Source of the DNA: a virus | Lineage: Duplodnaviria; Heunggongvirae; Uroviricota; Caudoviricetes | IMG/VR virus record: IMGVR_UViG_2537561670_000003 | Coordinates: 1 to 43,311 of that record | Length of the DNA stretch: 43,311 nucleotides | Direction: 5' to 3' (one strand) | Shown here: positions 1 to 31,519 of the stretch, piece after piece | Layout of the letters: each line of letters opens with the position of its first letter | How positions within the stretch are numbered: the first letter of the stretch is position 1 | Position numbers and translations under genes: made by a program | Notes under the pieces: model-generated | Database searches by the model: none | Told to the model about the DNA's origin: nothing | What the model saw: only the letters and a program-made list of their open reading frames with translations

Positions 1-390
1 TCACATCACCGGGCAGTCATCAAACTCCGCATTCCTGGCATCATTAATGATGTACGTGATCACTCCAAATATAGCGGGTGCAGAACTGTAACCATCATCA
101 TCTGCTGGCAGCGCTTCCCTTCTCCCGTTATCCAGATTAACCAGGTGCGGCTGAGGATGAGTCCGATATCGCTTGATCCTGAATTCCCCGTCGATTGCAC
201 ATATCAGCAGTGAACCATCGCAGGCAGTAAGTGACGCATCCACAACAAGCAACGCTCCCTGGATTATCCCTTCCCTGAAATGTGAACGCGATGCCCGCAT
301 GAAATAAGTCGCTGCGGGCTGACTGATTAGCTGCTGATCGAGGGAGATTCGTGTTTCAACATAATCTGCCGCAGGTGAAGGAAATCCCAT
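1..390 (-). CDS. UmuD'-like S24-family protein (UmuD homolog beginning at the equivalent of the UmuD' N-terminus)
   Basis: Translation MGFPSPAADYVE...EFRIKRY aligns with E. coli UmuD from its Gly25 cleavage product onward (recalled sequence). ATG at 388-390 has a GAGGG Shine-Dalgarno 7 nt upstream. The longer TTG-initiated ORF to 462 has no UmuD-like N-terminal arm and would cover the LexA-like box. Stop at 1-3. Confidence 0.6.
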   Translation of the reverse strand: MGFPSPAADYVETRISLDQQLISQPAATYFMRASRSHFREGIIQGALLVVDASLTACDGSLLICAIDGEFRIKRYRTHPQPHLVNLDNGRREALPADDDGYSSAPAIFGVITYIINDARNAEFDDCPVM

Positions 391-435
391 GTTTACGCCC
401 TCTCTTGAATACCGGATAAAAACACAGTATAAATA

Positions 436-451
436 CTGTATATCCATCCAG
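436..451. promoter_or_regulatory. Putative LexA (SOS) box CTGTATATCCATCCAG between divergent umuD'-like and dinI-like genes
   Basis: Fits CTGT-N8-ACAG with the CTG...CAG core intact. Lies about 18 nt upstream of the dinI-like ATG and about 45 nt upstream of the umuD'-like ATG. Confidence 0.45.
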
Positions 452-468
452 CAAAGAGGCAATGAGCA

Positions 469-711
469 ATGTTCGTGGAACTCGTTTATGACAAAAGGAA
501 TTTTGATGGTCTGCCCGGTGCAAAAGATATCATTCTGGGCGAGTTAACTAAGAGAGTTCACCGGATCTTCCCCGATGCTGATGTTCGGGTTAAACCGATG
601 ATGACACTGCCGGCGATCAACACTGACGCCAGCAAGCATGAGAAGGAACAGATAAGCCGTACTGTTCAGGAAATGTTTGAAGAGGCTGAATTCTGGTTAG
701 TGAGTGAGTAA
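469..711 (+). CDS. DinI-family DNA-damage-inducible protein
   Basis: 80 aa. Matches E. coli DinI in length and pattern (recalled): ...FPD...ISR.VQE..EEAEFWLVSE versus DinI ...FPD...ISEILQETWESADDWFVSE. AGAGG SD 9 nt upstream of ATG. Confidence 0.75.
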   Translation: MFVELVYDKRNFDGLPGAKDIILGELTKRVHRIFPDADVRVKPMMTLPAINTDASKHEKEQISRTVQEMFEEAEFWLVSE

Positions 712-765
712 AGATTTTCAATGCCCGCCACAGTTACGTATTGATTATGCTGTGGAGGATATTCA

Positions 766-791
766 TTTTCGTAAACGTTGGTTTGGGAGAA
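766..791. repeat. hix/gix-like 26-bp invertase recombination site (copy B, read on minus strand TTCTCCCAAACC-AA-CGTTTACGAAAA)
   Basis: Inverted copy of the site at 2581-2606: identical 12-bp left half plus AA core. Resembles Hin hixL TTCTTGAAAACCAAGGTTTTTGATAA (recalled). Confidence 0.55.
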
Positions 792-1127
792 GCGGCAAAA
801 CGGAATGTGGGAACAGGGGAAAATCAGATACCAGATATGTCTGCATTTCCATCTGGCAATAACTGGTTTCAGTTACCAAGTGGACATATCGTTCAGATAT
901 TTTCCATGAACGTTCTTGGTGCAGATGCTAATGGCACGTCAGCTAATTACCCCATTGCTTTTCCAACAACGATGATTGCTGTCAGTGCTCTATGGTCTGA
1001 TGGGACTGTAGCAAATGCACCGACATACAAGATGATGGGGAACACGACTAACAGAACAACTTTGACGATAAAAGTATCAGCCAGCTCAGGTACTTACGGG
1101 ACAATGATTATTGCGGTGGGACGATAA
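780..1127 (+). CDS. Alternative tail-fibre C-terminal cassette (Sv'-like), promoterless and start-less in this orientation
   Basis: ORF 741..1127 carries the NxGLGE junction motif at the hix-like site. Inversion would fuse it in frame to the constant part of the fibre gene (checked codon by codon). Confidence 0.5.
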   Translation, partial: GLGEAAKRNVGTGENQIPDMSAFPSGNNWFQLPSGHIVQIFSMNVLGADANGTSANYPIAFPTTMIAVSALWSDGTVANAPTYKMMGNTTNRTTLTIKVSASSGTYGTMIIAVGR

Positions 1128-1128
1128 T

Positions 1129-1572
1129 ATGAATAAATACAGTTACTCTCCTTCAGAAAATGCCTTTTATGCTGTTGCGTTAAAAAATACCTATGAATTG
1201 AGTGGCACATGGCCAGCTGATGCATTAGATATTCCTGATGACATTTCTGTAAAATATATGGCGGAACCGCCACAAGGGAAAATCCGAGTTGCAGGGGAAA
1301 ATGGTTTTCCCACATGGGCTGAAATACCTCCACCATCACATGAGGAACTTATTGAACAGGCCGAATCAGAGAGGCAATTATTGATTAACCAGGCCAACGA
1401 ATACATGAACAGTAAACAATGGCCCGGTAAAGCCGCTATTGGTCGTCTGAAAGGCGAGGAACTGGCACAATATAATTCGTGGCTGGATTATCTGGACGCA
1501 CTGGAACTGGTCGATACTTCCGGTACGCCCGATATTGAATGGCCTACGCCTCCGGCAGTTCAGGCCAGATGA
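1129..1572 (+). CDS. Tail fibre assembly protein (Tfa'/U'-like), paired with the alternative fibre cassette
   Basis: C-terminal motif WLDYLDALELVDTSGTPDIEWPTPP is typical of Tfa chaperones. ATG at 1129 follows the Sv' stop. Convergent with and overlapping the other tfa. Confidence 0.7.
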   Translation: MNKYSYSPSENAFYAVALKNTYELSGTWPADALDIPDDISVKYMAEPPQGKIRVAGENGFPTWAEIPPPSHEELIEQAESERQLLINQANEYMNSKQWPGKAAIGRLKGEELAQYNSWLDYLDALELVDTSGTPDIEWPTPPAVQAR

Positions 1573-2137
1573 CATCCGGCGCGGTGCTGGTATCTGTTGC
1601 AGTCACCGCGTCAATGTAATCCAGCACGGCGTTAAGTCGGGTTGTTTCTGCCTGAGTCAGTTTCCGTCCGGCCTGTAATTTCAGCTGAATCAGACTAATG
1701 GAAGCCATTGCTGCATCAATCAGTGATTGGCGCTGTGCTTCTGCCGCTTCTACTGAGGCACCGTGTTGTGCCTCAGTATCTGTCACCCATTTCTCACCAT
1801 CCCATTTATCATATGGCGTTAACGGTGAAAGCGTGACATAACCGTTTTTGATGGCACCGATATAATCCACTGTAACAGCTGCGCCATTTTCGATTGAGTA
1901 AACAGTCTCATTGCGATGGTCTTCCTCATGGCTCCATCCCTTACCTGTAAATACTGCCACTCTTCCCGGAATGTTTTCGTCCGGGTCAATACCAGTGGAA
2001 CAGGCGGGCATACTTACGCCAGTATTAATATATTCATCAGACCAGCCCGTATATTCAGACGTTACTGCATCATAATAAAAACAACGCATATCACCCGGCA
2101 CTGCAGCCAGCCCATTTTCATCAAAAACAGGTTTCAT
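1544..2137 (-). CDS. tfa: Tail fibre assembly protein Tfa
   Basis: 197 aa. Strong resemblance to lambda Tfa (recalled), including the C-terminal ...LDYIDAV..TDTSTAPDVIWPELP. Start overlaps the fibre stop (TAATG). Confidence 0.8.
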   Translation of the reverse strand: MKPVFDENGLAAVPGDMRCFYYDAVTSEYTGWSDEYINTGVSMPACSTGIDPDENIPGRVAVFTGKGWSHEEDHRNETVYSIENGAAVTVDYIGAIKNGYVTLSPLTPYDKWDGEKWVTDTEAQHGASVEAAEAQRQSLIDAAMASISLIQLKLQAGRKLTQAETTRLNAVLDYIDAVTATDTSTAPDVIWPELPEA

Positions 2138-3069
2138 TATTTAGCCCTCACCAGAAAGTTAAATGCAATATTTCGCGGTCTGACAGCAACAAAATTCACA
2201 CCATCACCCACAGAGTTACTGTTGAAATTAAATCGTGAAAATCCTGGCTGATTTCCGGCGATGCCATCATGAAAGTTAATTGCGTGTCCAGCACCTCCGC
2301 CTATATTCCCGGCAAACTGAGAAAAGTTTGTAGCTTCCTGCCAGCTTAATAATTCGCGACCACCATCTGCACCTCGCCCGTCATCCCAGACACGAATGAA
2401 ATCACCGCGGGCTTCAGGTAATACCAGCGAAGGAAACACTTTCGCCAGCACAGGATAATCAGTGGCAGAGAATTTCGCGCCGTTGAACTTCAAAAACACC
2501 ATACTGGACCAGCTGTCGATTACAGTATTTGGCATTGCAGCGGACGGCCAGAAGAACGGAACGCCAATAGCTGGAGAACCTTCTCCCAAACCAAGGTTTG
2601 TGCGAGCGTCTGCGGCATTCGTTGCGCCGGTTCCGCCGTCTGCGACAGTAACCGCACCGTTGCTCCCTTTCTGCGCAAGTTTACCGATGCCTGGGATGGT
2701 TACGGCGGTGCCGTTGATGGTAACTGTGATGCTTTGGTTTGCTGAGGTGGTGGCGAACGTCTCCCACGCGCCAATATTCTCGTCGTACTCTTTGATGAGC
2801 TGTGACATGGCCTGCGCCAGGCCGTCGACTGAGATATTGTCCGACACAAGGATTCCATACTTCTGGCCGCTCAGCGCCGGGGAAACTGCTGGCGTAACCG
2901 TCATTGACGTGGCGCTGTTCACGGATGAAATCTGAAACAGCTGCACCGGGTTAGACATCACGATAATCGTCTGGCCAGCGCGGACCTGGCTGGCGGGAGC
3001 TGTCCAGTTTGTGCCGGAGCCGGTTGCGGTATTTCCGTTAATAGAGATAGTTCCGGTGCTATAAATCAT
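2137..3069 (-). CDS. stf: Side tail fibre protein, C-terminal portion (Stf-like), currently expressed variable domain
   Basis: 310 aa. C-terminal ...NIAFNFLVRAK resembles the lambda Stf C-terminus. Contains the ARTNLGLGE junction at the hix-like site. Frame is open upstream of the Met without an ATG, suggesting truncation. Confidence 0.7.
   Translation of the reverse strand: MIYSTGTISINGNTATGSGTNWTAPASQVRAGQTIIVMSNPVQLFQISSVNSATSMTVTPAVSPALSGQKYGILVSDNISVDGLAQAMSQLIKEYDENIGAWETFATTSANQSITVTINGTAVTIPGIGKLAQKGSNGAVTVADGGTGATNAADARTNLGLGEGSPAIGVPFFWPSAAMPNTVIDSWSSMVFLKFNGAKFSATDYPVLAKVFPSLVLPEARGDFIRVWDDGRGADGGRELLSWQEATNFSQFAGNIGGGAGHAINFHDGIAGNQPGFSRFNFNSNSVGDGVNFVAVRPRNIAFNFLVRAK
2581..2606. 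repeat. hix/gix-like 26-bp invertase recombination site (copy A, TTCTCCCAAACC-AA-GGTTTGTGCGAG)
   Basis: Imperfect palindrome with 2-bp AA core, inside the tail fibre coding sequence at the NLGLGE codons. Confidence 0.55.
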
Positions 3070-10273: not shown

Positions 10274-13200
10274 TGTGTCCTCCTCGAATAAAGCACGCCG
10301 CCCGCGGACATTTCTTTTTTCAGTCGCTCGGTGATTGTCTGCTGAACAATCGCCTGCAGCTGTTTCGCCGTCCCCGTGGCGTTCGCCTGATTTATGCTTC
10401 CGTCACTCCCCTGCTGGCTGATGCTGACTGGGGCATAAACACTGATCCCGCCCATGCCAGCACCGGCTGCGTTCCCGCCGCCGACCAGACCACCCGAGGC
10501 ATACCCGCGCATCAGGCGATAGAGATTAGCCACGCCGATGCGGCTGGTTGATTCTTTGGTGAAGACGAATTCCCCGCGGTGAACGATACCGGCTGGCTCG
10601 TACTTGCCGCCGTGCCCGGTAAAACCGCCCACGTCAAAACCCTGTGGCCGGTATGACGGGACCGCGAATGACTGACCGGCAGAGGAGGTTTTCGCCCCGC
10701 CGCTAACCCAGCCCATTGCACTCTGGATGGTGTAAGCCACCAGCAGCTGGTTGATAACGGACACAATCATTTTAAGGATCGAGCTGGTGAATTCCCTGAA
10801 GCTCGCCTTCCCGGTTGTCGTCAGGCTGGTAAGCTGGCCCGCCAACCCGCTGAACGTAGCCTGAGAAATCTGCTGAACGGAGCTGAAAACGTTTGTCGCT
10901 GAATCCTGATATTCGGCCCAACCCTGTTTCGCACCGGCCAGCCAGTTTGCACGCAGGGCATCTTCAGCTTCGAACGTCGCCCTTTGCTCTTCCAGAACCT
11001 TTTGCTGCGCCTGAGGGTTGTACGAATAGCTTTCGCTGAGACGCTGCAGCGTAGTTTGTCGCCCGGCTTCCCGGGTGGATAACCCCTCAGACTGAGCCTG
11101 CAGGCCCGCCCTGGCGGCTTTTTGCTGCTGCTCAAACTTCACGGCCTGATCGGCCAGCTGGTTGAGCTTTTGCTGGCTGGCAACCTTATCGCCCAGGTCG
11201 GCCAGCTGCCGCTTGTACTCGAGCGTTTCTTCTTTGTGCGCCAGCAGGGATTTTTCCTGCGCCGTAAGCTGACGACGCCCAGCGGCCTCCTGCAGAACGG
11301 TGAACTGATTTTCAGTTTGCCAGAGATCCTGACGCTGTTTACTTATGACGTCGTTCACGCTGGTATGCTGCTCAAGCGTTTTAAGCTGGGCCTGAAGGGT
11401 GAGAAGTTCGGCCTGCGCCTTTTCCTCGGCTTTGTCCCCGGCGGGCGTTGAGTAGCTTTTGCCTTTCGGTGTTTTTGGATCCTTCCACTGCTTTTCAATC
11501 CCGGCGCGGGCCGCGGCAATGTCCTTTTCAGTCCACAGCGTGGCGACACCGTCTTTCGCATCCTGGCGGTTTTTCTCAATAAGCTGACTGAGCTTTTTCT
11601 CTGCTGAAGCCCGCTTTTCTGCCGCCGTCGCGCCGGACTCCACCAGCTGGTTAAACTGCTGCTGGCTGCGGATTGCCTGAGCCTGCTGGTCCGTTCGCAT
11701 TTTTTCCCGCGCGGCTGCCAGCCCTTCCTGGGCGTATTGCTGATCGGCAAGATCGTAAGCCTGCTTTTTCAGCTCCACCTGCTGGCGCGCGTTTCTCAGC
11801 CTTTCCGCATCCGCTTTCTGCAGAACGTTGTTACCGGCATAATCCGGGTCGACCTTAAGATTGCTGGACAGCGCGCGGTACTCTTTCTCTGCTGCCTGCC
11901 ACTCAGCAAAAGAGTCCTGGCGCTTCATCGCGGTGTCAGGATTACGCCCGACGCCCAGCATCGCATCCCACGCACCGGAGGCGGCATTCTTCACCCAGTT
12001 CCAGGCTTTTTCGAGGGATCCGAGATTATCCTCGACCGCACCGGCGCGCTGAATGACCGCGTCGGAATATGCCCGCATGGCCAGCTCGGCAGCCTTCTGA
12101 GAATCCCCCAGCGCCTGAGCAGAAGCTATCTGTTCATACTGGGTGGCTGTCAGAAAATGAAGGGAATCGTTGAGCGTCGCGACCGCGTTAACCGGATCAT
12201 CCTTCAGGCGTTTAAACTGATTTATGGTTTCGTCAACGGCCTGCCCGGTAGCCTGCTGCAGCCTGGCGGCAACATTGCTGACCATGCTGACGTCATTACC
12301 GCTGAACGCGCCGCTGCCAACGACCTGCGCCAGCACGCCTGCAGCGGCATGCTGAGTGATGCCATTACCTGCCAGCGAGCGCGCCAGCGCCTGCAGCTGC
12401 CCTGACGTTTTCCCCGCGTAGTTCCCGGTCAGGATCAGCTGCCTGTTAAATTCCTCAGACTCTTTGCTGCCGTCGTACCAGGCCTTACCCAACCCGAATA
12501 CCGCCGCGGCAATCCCTCCGACCATGCTGGCGATCCCAAGACCGCGCAGTGACAGAAGCTGGTCTATCCACCCTGCCCGGTTAGCCAGCGTGATCCCGGA
12601 GCCGCGCAGCGCGCCGAAGTTACCGCGCATGACCTCGCCGATCAGTATTCCCAGTTCCTGCCGGGCGGCGGCACTTTGCAGCCCCAGACCGTGCGTGGCG
12701 ACTTTGGCAGCTTCGAGCTTGCGGATATAGACTTCAGCCGCATCGCTGGCACCGACCTGCGCCGCCTTCATGCGCAGTAGCTCGGTACCGGAGAGCTTTT
12801 GCTCTGCAACCTGTTGCTTCAGCTGGCTGAGGAATCGCGTGCGCGCTGCGGCCGATTTTTCCTCCACGATCTGCAGTTCTTTTTGACGGGCCGTGGTGCG
12901 GGAAATAAGGGCGAGATAATCCTGCTGGGTTATGTTGCCCTGTGCCCTCGCTGCGCGAAAGCGCGCCTGCACGTTCGCAAGCGACTGTGTTTCACCATTG
13001 AGCTGGCGTACGCCGTCGATCTGGCGGAAAAATGATGCCGCAAGTTCATCCTGTCGACGGGCAAGCGCAGCGGCCTGCCCGTCATTCTCACGCATGCGCT
13101 GATTAAGCTCGGTCACGCGGCGGTGAGTTTCATCAACGGACTTTGAAACGTTCTGCCAGTCTTTGGTAAGCCCTTCCGTTGCGGCCGACTGGCGGGATTT

Positions 13201-13407
13201 CATATCTGCGGCAGCCGCCGCGCCAGCGTCACCCACGGTTTTAAACGCAGCCGCCTGCCGCTCTGAAGCGCGCTGCATTCGCGTCTGGACTTTTTCAGAG
13301 TCCTCAGCCATCCCGGTTAGCTGGCCCTTTATGCGGGCAACCTGCTCACTAAACGTGGCGCTGTCGACGTCAAGGTTGATGACCAGATCGCTAATCTGCT
13401 GGGCCAT
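10270..13407 (-). CDS. H: Tail tape measure protein H
   Basis: 1045 aa, alanine/glutamine-rich coiled-coil character, located between G/T and M. Confidence 0.85.
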
Positions 13408-13663
13408 ATCGGATACCTCCTGTTATCCCCTCAGCTGCGGCCATCAGCGCATCATCATCCGGCTCGTCATCGCTGATGACGATACCGGAAGGAGAAAGCA
13501 GGCTGAAATGTGCGGGGGTAAGTTCCGGGTCGCGGAAGAAAAGAGTGGAGATGGAATAAAGCAGCTCTGAGAAATGCGCATCGAGCTGAGCGTCCTGAAA
13601 ATAATGCTCCCGGTAGAACTGGTGCCAGTCGCCCAGCTCAGTGGAAGTCATTCCAGCCAGCAT
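13391..13663 (-). CDS. T: Tail assembly chaperone T segment (expected to be made as G-T fusion by -1 frameshift)
   Basis: By ORF-track coordinates it is in the -1 frame relative to G and lies between G and H, the conserved lambdoid arrangement. An A-rich GGAAAAG stretch lies near the G 3' end. Confidence 0.5.
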
Positions 13664-18518: not shown

Positions 18519-18531
18519 GCGGAACCACGAA

Positions 18532-20031
18532 TTACTTTTTGCGCTGGCTTTCGGACGGTGGCGCGCCCGGTTCTTTGGCTTCGGCACTGGTGCCTCCTTT
18601 ATCATTGGCGGGGTCGGTGTCAAACACCAGGCCCTGTTCACGGTTCTCGTCAACCTCAGCTTTACGGCGTGACTTAACATCATCCGGGTTGCGACCGCTG
18701 GCACGTATCCAGTCGGATTCAGTAGCAGCACCGCCGCGGATCTGCGTTTTCCAGGCATTCGCTTCTTTAACGGGATCAATCCACGGCATAACGGGCCCCG
18801 AATAAACCGCGTTATAAAGCGAGTCCATATCAATGCCTCTCGGCAGCTTGATTTCTCCGGCAGCAATAGCCATCTTGAGCCAGGCTCGGTACATGGGCCG
18901 GGTCACTGAACCGATGAACCAGTCCTGAAGAATCAGATAGCCGTCGGTTGACTCGACAAGCTCCTGCCGCTGGGCACTGTACGTTCCGTTGTAGTTTCTG
19001 GATGTGCTGGAAAAGCTGAGGCGACTGCCGGCGGACACGGCACGCAGCTGTCCGTTACGAAAAGATTCGAGGTTAGGGTTCGGGCGATCGGATTTAATCA
19101 TCCCGATTTCTTCCCCGGCCTGCAGTTCGTCATAGAGCATACCGGGCTGAATCATCAGCTCGCGGTCATCGCTGCTTGAATCAGAATCGAAGCTCTGTCC
19201 GTCGCCTTTTTTGATATACATGCCGAGTGCCGCAGCAATTCTGGCAGCAGTAAGCTCCGAGTCCTCGTATTCTTTCAGCGCGCTCAGACGCATCAGAACA
19301 CCAGACAAAAGAGACGTTCCGCGGGTCTGGTGCAGGCGTCGGGTGAATTTGAGATGCAGCATGTTCTCTGCATCTATCTCTTTGGTATCAAACTGACGCC
19401 CGGATACTGGCAGGCTTTTATAGACCTGATATTTTTTCGGGCGTCCCCAGTTATCGACAAAAACGCCCTGATTGAGCTGGGTGGCAGCATCGCTGTTCAT
19501 CGGCACAAAGTCCGGCTCCAGCGCTTCCAGCCAGAACGGCACGCCAGCAACCGGCTGAAGACCATTTCCGGTACCGCGAACCAGCTGAGCAAATACCTCA
19601 CCGTCCCGGAGCCACGTTCGCAGCATCAGCCGCTCCAGCATTGGGCGGGTAAACTGGGTTGTGACATCTGGCCTTACGGACCATTCGCCCCACTTTCGGC
19701 GGATATCAGTGGCCAGCTTTTTAGCGATCTTCCCGTTACTCAGCATCGGATGCGGTTCAACTATGATGCCCTTCGCACCCACCACCCTTTCTTCCAGCTT
19801 GTCGAAAACGCCGATCACCAGATCGTGGTTGTTATCCAGCCAGCGCGCCTGCTGCCTCAGCGAAACCGCCCCCATCTGGCTGAGCTGATCGGCTGAACGA
19901 TTTTCCTTCTGGGCTTTGTGGGTACGCGTTTGCTTTACCGCCTCATACGCTTTAATAACTGCGCGGGCACGCAGGCGTGAGGCTTTCCAGCCTGGTGAAA
20001 ACAGGCCAATCGCATCATCTAAAAAACTCAT
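18532..20031 (-). CDS. B: Portal protein (lambda gpB family)
   Basis: 499 aa, located between W and the protease-capsid gene, as in lambda. Confidence 0.8.
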   Translation of the reverse strand: MSFLDDAIGLFSPGWKASRLRARAVIKAYEAVKQTRTHKAQKENRSADQLSQMGAVSLRQQARWLDNNHDLVIGVFDKLEERVVGAKGIIVEPHPMLSNGKIAKKLATDIRRKWGEWSVRPDVTTQFTRPMLERLMLRTWLRDGEVFAQLVRGTGNGLQPVAGVPFWLEALEPDFVPMNSDAATQLNQGVFVDNWGRPKKYQVYKSLPVSGRQFDTKEIDAENMLHLKFTRRLHQTRGTSLLSGVLMRLSALKEYEDSELTAARIAAALGMYIKKGDGQSFDSDSSSDDRELMIQPGMLYDELQAGEEIGMIKSDRPNPNLESFRNGQLRAVSAGSRLSFSSTSRNYNGTYSAQRQELVESTDGYLILQDWFIGSVTRPMYRAWLKMAIAAGEIKLPRGIDMDSLYNAVYSGPVMPWIDPVKEANAWKTQIRGGAATESDWIRASGRNPDDVKSRRKAEVDENREQGLVFDTDPANDKGGTSAEAKEPGAPPSESQRKK

Positions 20032-20267
20032 CCAAACCTCGCCAGCCTGTAGCCGGGTCGCCCACGGCGTTTGTTATTGAGCGTTGCCAGTCGTCGCTCC
20101 CATTCCTGACGGCCTTTTCTGATTTCCGACAGGTTTTCGAGCGTCATCTGCTGCCCGTTGAAAGTGATTGATTTCCCCTCCAGAACAGACAGCTCGGCTG
20201 CAGCATAGCGGTCGATCATGTTTTGAATATCTGCTGGATTCACACCCAACCTCCTGACGAAGACCAC
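20028..20267 (-). CDS. W: Head-tail connector protein W-like
   Basis: 79 aa between terminase A and portal; C-terminal RRGRPG resembles lambda gpW (recalled). Confidence 0.55.
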   Translation of the reverse strand: MVFVRRLGVNPADIQNMIDRYAAAELSVLEGKSITFNGQQMTLENLSEIRKGRQEWERRLATLNNKRRGRPGYRLARFG

Positions 20268-26665: not shown

Positions 26666-27718
26666 TTATGATTTTTTCAGTTTTTCCACCTCTTCGGTGG
26701 TCTGTATAAACCTGTCTGCCTCCAGTTCTACGCCGATCGCCCGACGGCCAAGTTCTATTGCAGCTTTCACAGTTGAACCAGAGCCCATAAAGAAATCGGC
26801 AACGATATCCCCCGGTCTGCTGCTGGCGCTAATGATCTGTTTCAGCATGTCGGCAGGTTTTTCGCATGGATGTTTGCCTGGATAAAACTGAACAGGCTTA
26901 TGTGTCCATACGTCGGTATAAGGAACAAGAGCGGAAACAGAGAAGCAGCGCCGAAGGATTTTGTATTCCTCCAGCAATTCTGAATACTTGCGGTTTAATG
27001 ACTGGTAGGTAGCCACCAGCTGGTGGTGAGGATGTTCAAGCTTTTGCTGAATATGTTTATCGATGGCGATCCGCGTGAACAGTTCCTGCAATTTTCGATA
27101 GTCCACTTCATTCGGTAGTTGCCATTGGCTTGCACCAAACCAGTGTGACGCCATGTTTTTCTTTCCGGTTGCCTCAGCTATTTCTTTCGAGCTGACACCC
27201 AGTGATTCACGGGCATTACGGAAGTAATCAATCAGCGGCGTCATAATGTGCTGCTTTAGCTCTGTGCTTTTCCTTTCGTAAACATCCTCTTTACCTGTAT
27301 ACGGTCCAAGATAGTGCTCAGCAAACAAAATCCGTTCCGTAGATGGAAAGTACGCACGCAGGCTTTCTTTATTACATCCATTCCAGCGGCCCGATGGTTT
27401 TGCCCAAATGATGTGATTCAAAACGTTGAATCGGGCGCGCATCATAATCTCTATATCTGAGGCCAGTCGGTGACCGCAAAACAGGTAGATGCTGCCAGCA
27501 GGTTTAAGAACGCGAGCATACTCAGCCAGGCAGCTATCAAGCCAGCGTAAGTAGTCCTCGTCCCCCTTCCATTGGTTGTCCCAGCCGTTGGGCTTCACTT
27601 TGAAGTACGGAGGATCCGTAACTATAAGATCAATAGAGTTATCCGGGAGGGTGGCGACGTAATGCAGACTATCAGCGTTGATTAACTCAACACTGTTTAT
27701 TTTTACAGTATTTTTCAT
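26666..27718 (-). CDS. Orphan DNA methyltransferase (beta-class N6A/N4C, DPPY motif)
   Basis: LIVTDPPYF motif plus C-terminal AdoMet-binding DFFMGSGST; no adjacent restriction endonuclease gene. Confidence 0.85.
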   Translation of the reverse strand: MKNTVKINSVELINADSLHYVATLPDNSIDLIVTDPPYFKVKPNGWDNQWKGDEDYLRWLDSCLAEYARVLKPAGSIYLFCGHRLASDIEIMMRARFNVLNHIIWAKPSGRWNGCNKESLRAYFPSTERILFAEHYLGPYTGKEDVYERKSTELKQHIMTPLIDYFRNARESLGVSSKEIAEATGKKNMASHWFGASQWQLPNEVDYRKLQELFTRIAIDKHIQQKLEHPHHQLVATYQSLNRKYSELLEEYKILRRCFSVSALVPYTDVWTHKPVQFYPGKHPCEKPADMLKQIISASSRPGDIVADFFMGSGSTVKAAIELGRRAIGVELEADRFIQTTEEVEKLKKS

Positions 27719-29779: not shown

Positions 29780-30490
29780 TCACATTTCTGCCACTTTGAG
29801 GGCTTCTTCTTCCTCATAGTATTCAAGAGCCATGGCCAACGCAGATTCATCAAGCTGGGTAAAAGCGGCCTTTAACCCAGCCCAGTGCCCTGAATAGACA
29901 CGCAACCATGTCGAACGGTCAACGCTAACCATGCGGGCCAACGCTGCACCAGCATAGTCTTTATAGGTTTCATTATTTCTGGTTGCGGCAATTTCCTGCC
30001 CTGCCAGCCATACCAGGCCTATCAGTTTCTTTACTACGCGCTCCTGAAGGGAGTTATCACCCAGGCATTTCTGATAAGTTTTCCAGACGTATTCACACAT
30101 CATCACCTGGTGCTTATAGCTAAGGTCAAAACCGTAGCAGTACCGCAACCAGGCCTGCTGGTATCCACTAAGCGCGGACACTGCCCTACGCCACGGCGCG
30201 GACTCAAATTCCGCATCTTTTATCGGCGGCATTGGCCTGCGGCGGCTGCGTGTTTCCAGCACATACAGTGGCGCGGAAAGTGAGTTAACAAAGCGTGGCC
30301 CCTTCTCTCCTTCGAGTTCGACGAGATGAATTCCACGGCGAGGGGTGGCATTTTTGTCTGCTGGTGGGTGTTCACTGAAAGCCTCAAGCTGCCCTTTTGT
30401 TCCCCCAGACAGGTCAGGTAGCGCGCGGCGCAATTCTATTCTTACAAAATTCAGGTCTTGTTGATTCATGCTTCTTTGCGCTCCATACAC
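29780..30490 (-). CDS. Putative late antiterminator Q
   Basis: Assigned by position: last early gene, immediately upstream of the tR'-like terminator and the lysis region. Family assignment is not certain from sequence alone. Confidence 0.45.
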   Translation of the reverse strand: MYGAQRSMNQQDLNFVRIELRRALPDLSGGTKGQLEAFSEHPPADKNATPRRGIHLVELEGEKGPRFVNSLSAPLYVLETRSRRRPMPPIKDAEFESAPWRRAVSALSGYQQAWLRYCYGFDLSYKHQVMMCEYVWKTYQKCLGDNSLQERVVKKLIGLVWLAGQEIAATRNNETYKDYAGAALARMVSVDRSTWLRVYSGHWAGLKAAFTQLDESALAMALEYYEEEEALKVAEM

Positions 30491-31519
30491 TTAAGCTTTC
30501 GCAATTACGCCGATCGCCAGCGCCCGATCCATAAAACGCAGTAGCAGCTCAAGCTGCGTACCATGCTTCTGCTCGAATGCCGGTACATCGGCGTGTAACT
30601 CGTCGTGGCACTCTCTGCACAGAGGGATCACGAAGAGATCATGGGCTTTTGTTGCTGTCCCCCCCATACCGTGCCCTACGATATGGTGCGGATCATCTGC
30701 TGGCCGTCGGCAACACTCACAGGGTTGTGTTTTAACCCAGCGGGTGTACGTCTCATTTATCCAGCGGCGTCGCTTTGGCCTGAGCATGAAAGATTCTGGA
30801 GACTCCGGATCAACAGAGAGCGTGAGGATCTTCTTCGCCTTCTCCTGCACGAGGCTGGTTGCAGAAGCGGAAGGCACAATGTCGCTTTCCCTCATGACCG
30901 AGCGGATCTTATCATCCGGAAGGCGTAGCCCCTTGTGCGCAACGCTTTCCGGAATAACATCAGCCAGGTCGTTTCTGACCATCCACCAGCACAGTTCCGG
31001 AAGCGTCAGGATATGCGACTCGGGAAAACCAGAATCACGCCGAATGACTTCCAGAATCCAGGATACCAGGTTTCCTGCCGCTATACCTGCAAGCTGTTCG
31101 GTATGCTGCCCCGACAAAGTGTGATCGCAATGCCAGCACAGGCGAATACTTCCTGGTGGGTGCCGCATTGTTGTGAAGTTCTTGTCGTGCCACGATGAAT
31201 GTGGCCACTGGCATTCAAACCGATTACTCAACCATTGCTCAAGGGAAGGAAGCCCACCAGCACGCTGAATAACCCGATCATTCTCGAAGACCTGCCGCAT
31301 TACCGGATCATCAGCCAGCGGCTGAATGGCGGCGGGAACAGCTCCTGTACTGAATGACGCCATTTCTTCTGGTTCAGGCTCAAGCAGAACGCGACCGCGC
31401 ATAAAGAGGTGCATCAGTTCCGCGCCGGGACGAAACAACACAATCCCCATACGATGGGCGATCTCGGGGGTAAGCAGAGCTCTCACGCGACCTGCCCCCT
31501 GGCAATGTGTTCTGCCCAC
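30491..31519 (-). CDS. nin-region protein with C-terminal Cys/His HNH-like motif (DUF968/NinG-like)
   Basis: C-terminal ...CECCRRPADDPHHIVGHGMGG...CRECHDELH. Overlaps the upstream gene, so the true start is probably internal. Confidence 0.5.
   Translation of the reverse strand: MGRTHCQGAGRVRALLTPEIAHRMGIVLFRPGAELMHLFMRGRVLLEPEPEEMASFSTGAVPAAIQPLADDPVMRQVFENDRVIQRAGGLPSLEQWLSNRFECQWPHSSWHDKNFTTMRHPPGSIRLCWHCDHTLSGQHTEQLAGIAAGNLVSWILEVIRRDSGFPESHILTLPELCWWMVRNDLADVIPESVAHKGLRLPDDKIRSVMRESDIVPSASATSLVQEKAKKILTLSVDPESPESFMLRPKRRRWINETYTRWVKTQPCECCRRPADDPHHIVGHGMGGTATKAHDLFVIPLCRECHDELHADVPAFEQKHGTQLELLLRFMDRALAIGVIAKA

Follow-up and report, generated by a model that had tools for sequence, protein, structure and literature searches.

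The first 711 nucleotides of the window, that is, the entire 43,311-nucleotide stretch of DNA that we analyzed, contain two divergently oriented genes separated by a 78-bp intergenic spacer. The gene on the minus strand (humD; positions 1–390, with the stop codon at 1–3 and the ATG start codon at 388–390) encodes a 129-residue protein of the HumD family, a pre-truncated homolog of UmuD'; the gene on the plus strand (positions 469–711, with the sequence AGAGG in front of it at 455–459) encodes an 80-residue DinI-like protein. The spacer contains a LexA box that is common to both genes (box 1; positions 434–453, core 436–451). The original prediction, read from the letters of the sequence, had placed a UmuD homolog on the minus strand, a DinI-family gene at 469–711, and a LexA-box-like sequence at 436–451 between them; profile, structure and motif searches uphold these assignments, and the divergent pairing of a DinI-like gene with a gene for an already processed UmuD' matches a known cassette that is annotated with a lexA site in phiKO2.

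The 129-residue protein is an established member of a family that has already been described. It matches NCBIfam model NF051876 (‘HumD family translesion DNA polymerase’, an equivalog) with 225.9 bits (cut-off 120), and the match is full length, that is, residues 1–129 align with profile positions 1–129 of 129; the score with the UmuD subfamily model NF007621 is 90.8 bits, below the cut-off of 110, so the protein is not UmuD proper. The more general relationship is seen in matches to the Pfam family Peptidase_S24 (4.4e-09) and, in a search of PDB sequences, to UmuD' (7e-24). The sequence is 72% identical to that of HumD from phage P1, the family member that has been studied experimentally, and 67–69% identical to those of the UmuD-like proteins of N15, HK639, phiKO2, and HK140. 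An AF2 model calculated with a diverse alignment (mean pLDDT 73.5, about 80–86 in the core) finds UmuD and UmuD' as its best Foldseek matches in the PDB (TM 0.76–0.77, normalised by target length), as expected for a UmuD'-like (S24 peptidase) fold; a first AF2 model, calculated with a shallow alignment (30 homologs, at least 69% identical), had a mean pLDDT of 49 and was discarded. At the C-terminus, the HumD proteins have an acidic tail (NDARxxEFDDxPVM) that is conserved, specific to this clade, and missing from UmuD.

The dN/dS of the 129-codon frame (0.03–0.07 with Citrobacter orthologs, 0.11 with P1) points to strong purifying selection; on the values of 0.03–0.07, we rejected a pseudogene or decaying remnant. 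The newest RefSeq annotation of Escherichia coli Nissle 1917 assigns the protein to the HumD family with its start at window position 390; an older PGAP annotation of Nissle placed the start at 447 and named the protein an S24 peptidase.

The position of the start codon determines whether the protein has an N-terminal arm. The minus-strand open reading frame that ends at 1–3 has three possible starts, TTG 462 (153 residues), ATG 447 (148 residues), and ATG 390 (129 residues); the frame is open for 51 codons upstream of ATG 390, with the second ATG 19 codons and the TTG 24 codons upstream. The original prediction located the apparent start exactly at the residue equivalent to the N-terminus of UmuD', with Met replacing the Cys of the Cys-Gly cleavage site. 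This is borne out by three alignments: G2 aligns with UmuD G25 in HMMER, MAFFT, and hhalign, and Met1 falls at Cys24. The N-terminal sequence M-G-F-P-S-P is shared by 115 of 121 close homologs, and a Shine-Dalgarno-like sequence read by inspection (GAGAGGG, minus strand, 398–404) is found 7 nt upstream of ATG 390 and is conserved in the Citrobacter loci. Thus, judged from these comparisons, ATG 390 appears to be the equivalent of the N-terminus of UmuD', leaving no cleavable arm.

Translation from ATG 447 or TTG 462 would instead yield a UmuD-like protein of 148 or 153 residues with an arm that needs to be cleaved, the situation that would run counter to the original prediction. The open upstream frame, with its ATG and TTG, allows such a product, and products of 148–167 residues are called in the older PGAP annotation and in many database entries. 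However, MAFFT does not align the 24-residue upstream extension with the arm of UmuD, and the extension places Met before the Gly, a position occupied by Ala or Cys in 44 of the 50 arm-bearing homologs. Both upstream codons are located within LexA box 1 and the presumed −35/spacer region of the humD promoter, and neither is preceded by a Shine-Dalgarno sequence. Relatives whose upstream sequences differ do not share the extension: in P1 and HK140, the frame ends four and six codons upstream, respectively, with no alternative start there, and it is open for only eight codons in N15 and 19 in HK639. With a HumD profile that spans exactly residues 1–129 and a current RefSeq start at ATG 390, we regard translation of the longer protein as extremely improbable.

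The arm, the Ala/Cys-Gly cleavage site, and the Ser-Lys dyad in its G-x-S-M context, which together characterize UmuD proper, are not found in this protein. The original prediction held that the GDSM nucleophile motif had become RSHF and that the catalytic Lys was kept. The second part stands, as each of the three alignments pairs K73 with UmuD K97; so does the loss of the motif, as the nucleophile region reads SRSHF with a one-residue deletion and the G-D-S-M context is lost in every alignment. The exact residue correspondence implied by RSHF depends on the alignment, the equivalent of UmuD S60 being H37 by HMMER and hhalign and S36 by MAFFT. Of the 121 close relatives of HumD, 91 have Ser and 26 have Thr at position 36, 113 have His at position 37, and 118 have Lys at position 73.

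We surveyed more distant homologs by searching 1.84 billion representative proteins, aligning the near-full-length matches, and selecting representatives at 50% identity; these include 39 homologs that start with M-G and 50 that have an N-terminal arm. In the arm-bearing homologs, the S60 column contains Ser in 41 of 50, the M61 column contains Met in 39, the G58 column contains Gly in 48, and the K97 column contains Lys in 44; the corresponding numbers in the 39 M-G starters are 7 (Ser), 2 (Met), 14 (Gly), and 16 (Lys). The one-residue deletion beside the motif is present in 35 of the 39 M-G starters and in 3 of the 50 arm-bearing homologs; the residue before the cleavage-site Gly (Ala or Cys in the 44 arm-bearing homologs noted above) is not applicable to the M-G starters. 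Thus, the Ser-Lys site has decayed in the armless homologs and has been retained in the arm-bearing homologs, and this supports the interpretation that loss of the arm is accompanied by relaxed constraint on the dyad, as would be expected for proteins that do not cleave themselves. Together with the known biology of the HumD family and the full-length membership in NF051876, the survey favors the proposal, also part of the original prediction, that this protein mimics UmuD' without RecA-mediated cleavage.

The divergently transcribed gene encodes a protein that matches Pfam DinI (PF06183; 1.1e-18, 67.7 bits, gathering score 24.2), PHROG 189 (‘RecA filament binding protein DinI’), and, in the PDB, E. 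coli DinI (3e-07); it is 78% identical to gp22 of phiKO2. The score with the equivalog model for chromosomal dinI, NF007893, is 39.9 bits (cut-off 111), so the protein is DinI-like and is not an ortholog of chromosomal DinI. When the RecA-contacting residues of DinI are considered (PMC9926225), seven of eight are identical (L13, E24, E69, and W77 of E. coli DinI are L15, E25, E68, and W76 here) or conservatively replaced (L21 by I22, W71 by F70, and F78 by L77); the lone lost contact is D76, which is replaced by F75. The acidic C-terminal helix ends W-L-V-S-E. A C-terminal fragment of a tail fibre, part of an invertible segment, is located 29 nt beyond the dinI-like gene.

The spacer between the genes contains the top LexA-like site in the 43-kb window. 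We scanned the window with a heterology-index matrix trained on a set of E. coli LexA boxes; the index values are approximate. The best 20-mer is box 1 (TACTGTATATCCATCCAGCA), with an approximate index of about 4.75, which ranks ahead of the median training site; its core at 436–451 reads CTGTATATCCATCCAG, that is, CTG-N10-CAG, and 200 shuffles of the 43 kb yielded no site of equal quality. A second, weaker LexA-like box (box 2; TACCGGATAAAAACACAGTA, positions 410–429) is separated from box 1 by 4 bp, has CCGG in place of CTGT in one half, and is third in the window with an approximate index of about 8.6; at the same place, the Citrobacter murliniae ortholog has a canonical CCAG and an approximate index of about 4.6.

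Conservation of box 1 agrees with the scan. When the intergenic region of the window is aligned with those of phiKO2 and four Citrobacter-type loci, no variation is seen in the CTG..CAG of box 1 or in the core ACAGTATTTATACTGT, but the flanks have diverged. A strong LexA box (approximate index 2.6–5.3) is present in all 11 of the loci with humD intact or, as in C. murliniae L009 alone, disrupted only close to its 3' end. The box precedes humD, or an ORF of about 80 codons that intervenes, by 14–44 nt, and the 11 loci include P1, N15, and HK639, the upstream sequences of which are unrelated. No LexA box was found with the two frameshifted copies of humD.

Two putative promoters can be picked by eye in the spacer. 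For the dinI-like gene (plus strand, 405–433), a −35 hexamer (TTGAAT, 405–410) is separated by a 17-nt spacer from a −10 hexamer (TATAAA, 428–433); for humD (minus strand, 426–454), a −35 hexamer (TTGCTG, 454–449) is likewise separated by a 17-nt spacer from a −10 hexamer (TATACT, 431–426). If these are correct, box 1 would cover the transcription start of the dinI-like gene as well as the −35/spacer region of humD, and box 2 would cover the start region of humD. A LexA box of the CTGT-N8-ACAG type that overlaps a promoter is typical for the LexA regulon; the overlap seen here depends on the hand-picked hexamers, which do not pass a consensus scan (0 sigma-70-like promoters in 1–1200). A scan of the same region found no terminators.

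The window corresponds to positions 426695–470005 of the Nissle chromosome (NZ_CP022686.1) and begins with the stop codon of the UmuD-like gene and ends where an integrase gene ends; it contains the head, tail, and lysis genes, Q, and the replication and repressor genes of a lambdoid phage. The chromosomes of Nissle and its laboratory derivatives are 100% identical to window positions 1–720, and the Nissle derivative ESM1.4 (NZ_CP069627.1) has the identical module at the same coordinates; in a set of 5426 complete E. coli genomes, 98 have any match to positions 1–720 and 34 have most of this stretch. A lambdoid ‘prophage 3’ has been described for Nissle (PMC5987069); comparison with that description did not establish that it is the element in the window. 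In K-12, the gene order is aspS-yecD-yecE-yecN and yecE is uninterrupted; when K-12 yecE is mapped onto Nissle, one part is found to the left of the element and the other part to the right, with an imperfect overlap of 21 bp. Therefore, the element is a prophage that is integrated in yecE, although no exact att repeat of at least 12 nt was found at its ends.

The left end of the prophage is located approximately 509 bp past window position 1 and is followed by the split yecE. The original prediction left undecided whether the module is prophage cargo or flanking chromosome: it is prophage cargo, being located inside the insertion that splits yecE, at the tail-fibre/att end of the lambdoid prophage. 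The prediction also placed a umuC-like partner, if any, beyond position 1; inspection of these 509 bp of prophage DNA revealed only one small ORF of the YnaM/YnfT family and no umuC or dinB-like gene; the annotation lists neither of these genes elsewhere in the prophage and no Y-family polymerase anywhere in it. Thus, humD stands alone and shares no operon with a umuC homolog, as is characteristic of the HumD family. Several pseudogenes are present in the host prophage and frameshifted copies of humD are found in Citrobacter; humD is, therefore, dispensable.

The feature is already known: HumD has been recognized since 1999, a curated NCBI family model names precisely this protein, and a cassette with DinI, a lexA site, and HumD is annotated in phiKO2. 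The P1 protein, described as a shorter, already activated version of UmuD in a passage of PMC7092418 that cites McLenigan et al. 1999, shares with the protein in the window its length of 129 residues, the MGFPSPAADYVE start at the N-terminus of UmuD', the His at the position that HMMER and hhalign align with UmuD S60, and the C-terminal EFDDCPV tail. P1 also lacks a linked umuC and has a LexA box in the divergent promoter region, annotated in the P1 record as ‘in the regulatory region of lxr and humD’, between these two genes. The differences are the divergent neighbor (lxr in P1, the DinI-like gene here), the replicon (a plasmid prophage in P1, an integrated lambdoid prophage here), and one half of the LexA box (ACAG in P1, CCAG here).

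The gene order in phiKO2 is closer. Its GenBank record lists, right after the tail genes, gene 22 (DinI), a lexA binding site, overlapping divergent −10/−35 signals, and gene 23 (UmuD-like); the window has the same order (the DinI-like gene, a shared LexA box, and humD after the tail-fibre genes), the intergenic core ACAGTATTTATACTGT is identical, HumD is 68% identical, and the divergent promoters that we picked by hand mirror the overlapping promoters annotated in phiKO2. phiKO2 differs from the prophage described here in being a linear-plasmid prophage, in using GTG as the start codon of humD, and in the perfect CTGT-N8-ACAG sequence of its main box. HK140 has a similar arrangement with DinI, a small ORF, and a UmuD-like gene beside attP; unlike the window, HK140 and two Citrobacter loci carry an additional ORF of about 80 codons that separates humD from the operator.

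Compared with E. coli UmuD and UmuD' (PDB 1UMU, 1AY9, and 8GMT), the protein described here has the same fold, 42% identity over the UmuD' part, and predicted LexA control in common; it differs in having no N-terminal arm, cleavage site, or G-D-S-M motif (with the one-residue deletion) and no umuC operon, and in having an extra acidic C-terminal tail of 13 residues. The 80-residue DinI-like protein belongs to the same DinI fold family as E. coli DinI and the Salmonella Gifsy dinI homologs, and it shares with them the acidic C-terminal helix. Like Gifsy dinI, it is encoded by a prophage and has a LexA box close to its start codon, 15 nt before the ATG; in the Salmonella prophage dinI homologs, the LexA box is about 19 nt from the ATG and the genes are damage-induced (PMC3121763, PMC8072944).

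From these observations, we propose, with a probability of roughly 0.85, that positions 1–711 constitute a LexA-repressed divergent accessory cassette that provides a ready-made UmuD' and a DinI-like protein in a lambdoid prophage of Nissle. In undamaged cells, LexA bound to 434–453, and perhaps also to 410–429, would block two overlapping back-to-back promoters; upon DNA damage and cleavage of LexA, both genes would be expressed. The 129-residue HumD would begin where RecA-processed UmuD' begins, so that no self-cleavage would be needed and the Ser-Lys site would no longer be maintained. By analogy with P1 HumD, it would dimerise and assemble with RecA and the chromosomally encoded UmuC of the host into a translesion polymerase that resembles Pol V; consistent with this, HumD retains the equivalents of the UmuD residues that contact RecA (Y52, D91, E93, and F94; PMC9926225). 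UmuC would be supplied by the chromosomal umuDC, which is present in 5423 of the 5426 E. coli genomes, including ESM1.4. The DinI-like protein would be situated in the groove of the RecA filament and would modulate the functions of RecA. In the 1999 work of McLenigan et al., P1 HumD was reportedly poorly expressed from its native context, and good complementation was said to require a high-copy plasmid, so the physiological effect of HumD may be small.

Two other functions for the cassette deserve comment. It might mainly serve prophage induction, with the DinI-like gene belonging to a LexA-controlled antirepressor system like those of Tum or Gifsy and HumD being incidental: the Gifsy LexA-regulated antirepressor operons (dinI-gfoA) have a dinI homolog as their first gene, and Tum of phage 186 has a DinI-like half (PMC3121763). 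However, no antirepressor-sized ORF follows the dinI-like gene in the window, where the tail-fibre fragment is found instead, and the DinI/HumD pair also occurs in the linear-plasmid prophage phiKO2. The repressor of the Nissle prophage is annotated as a LexA-family regulator; since such regulators usually carry an S24 self-cleavage domain, this repressor may not need an antirepressor. In addition, induction was unaffected when the Gifsy dinI homologs were removed by non-polar deletion (PMC3121763). In our judgment, a cassette dedicated mainly to induction is quite unlikely.

HumD might also act as a brake, titrating UmuC, UmuD, or RecA filaments (for example, through heterodimers with host UmuD or through a block to recombination) and thereby lowering mutagenesis or recombination in the host during the SOS response. 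UmuD'2C inhibits RecA-mediated recombination, the RecA-contact residues of UmuD are retained in HumD, and the acidic C-terminal tail that is missing in UmuD could add a new interaction, all in keeping with such a role. Against it, P1 HumD, which is 72% identical, is reported, going by the title of the 1999 paper of McLenigan et al. (J Bacteriol 181:7005), to be a functional homolog that facilitates SOS mutagenesis, and nothing in the present sequence data points to inhibition by HumD; we consider this role very unlikely.

A more elaborate form of the LexA-repressed accessory cassette, which we regard as rather doubtful, is that the DinI-like protein and HumD are a functional pair that retimes SOS mutagenesis in the host: occupancy of the filament groove by the DinI-like protein would restrain the RecA-dependent cleavage of host UmuD (and possibly of repressors), and HumD would provide a cleavage-independent UmuD' as soon as LexA is inactivated. 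If so, translesion synthesis would be controlled by the phage and freed from its normal late checkpoint, the acidic C-terminal tail of HumD might mediate a phage-specific interaction, and damage-induced mutation rates would be affected in the probiotic chassis strain EcN.

Whether or not the two proteins act as such a pair, the locus bears on how members of the HumD family are annotated and understood. Many database entries, including the older entries for Nissle, have the wrong upstream start (148–167 residues) or the name ‘LexA family transcriptional regulator’. For the family, the pattern of armless UmuD homologs with a decayed Ser-Lys site supports independence from cleavage. For the organism, the prophage equips Nissle 1917 and its engineered derivatives, SYNB1934 among them, with a predicted LexA-controlled, pre-activated subunit of Pol V, and this HumD could bear on damage-induced mutagenesis and on the genetic stability of the strain.

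The start of humD, which we place at the ATG at position 390, is drawn differently across the databases (region 391-462 here). Many versions of HumD start upstream, giving proteins of 148, 162, 167 or 223 amino acids, and an older annotation of the Nissle genome begins humD at an ATG at 447, that is, within the LexA box; entries are also labelled 'LexA family transcriptional regulator' or 'S24 family peptidase'. These upstream starts and these names look like annotation errors. At the other end of the protein, HumD-clade members conserve an acidic C-terminal tail (N-D-A-R-x-x-E-F-D-D-x-P-V-M; residues 117-129, positions 4-42) that is still discernible at ~40% identity and is not present in UmuD or in other arm-bearing homologs; the final six residues (124-129) are of low confidence in the AF2 model.

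In some relatives, an additional ORF of ~80 codons lies between the predicted LexA operator and humD, and it abuts or overlaps the humD start. This ORF is a feature of phage HK140, in which it is the hypothetical gp27, and of two Citrobacter loci (L006 and L008); its location implies that in these relatives humD is the second gene of a LexA-controlled transcript.

Next to dinI, the segment 741-3069 contains a 20-nt inverted repeat (AAACGTTGGTTTGGGAGAAG; 95% complementary) at 773-792 and 2580-2599. The repeat flanks two opposed sets, each composed of a tail-fibre C-terminus and a tail-fibre assembly gene: one on the plus strand (741-1127 and 1129-1572) and one on the minus strand (1544-2137 and 2137-3069). 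With this arrangement, which resembles that of the Mu G and P1 C segments, 741-3069 looks like an invertible host-range segment of the same type. No invertase gene is annotated, either adjoining the segment or elsewhere in the prophage. The position beside the segment at which an invertase would be expected is occupied by dinI and humD.

The prophage extends ~509 bp (11492-12000 of locus L001) to the left of position 1, which is the end of the humD stop codon, to the junction with the split yecE gene; this stretch contains a small ORF of the YnaM/YnfT family. The two att sequences overlap imperfectly over 21 nt (GCCCGCCACTTTAACTGCGTG vs GCCCGTCATGTTAACTGTGTG). In RefSeq, the genes encoding tail assembly protein T (~13400-13660; Nissle 440094-440357) and the portal protein (~18530-20055; Nissle 445226-446749) are partial and a DUF968 gene (~30490-31490; Nissle 457185-458181) is frameshifted, so the Nissle prophage may be defective. 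Elsewhere, humD itself is frameshifted or truncated in loci L009, L011, L012 and L013, which are from Citrobacter genomes and one MAG labelled Bacillota, and in L012 and L013 the LexA box is lost as well; in some lineages the cassette is evidently in decay. The contig labelled 'Bacillota' is enterobacterial in appearance, which suggests a binning error.

The runner-up LexA-like box of the window (CACTGTTTATTTTTACAGTA; 27691-27710) has an approximate heterology index of 4.9, calculated with a matrix of E. coli LexA boxes. It is located on the coding strand only 6 nt past the ATG start codon of a gene for a DNA methyltransferase that is upstream of the holin and lysozyme genes, and this candidate box may mark a second prophage gene under SOS control.
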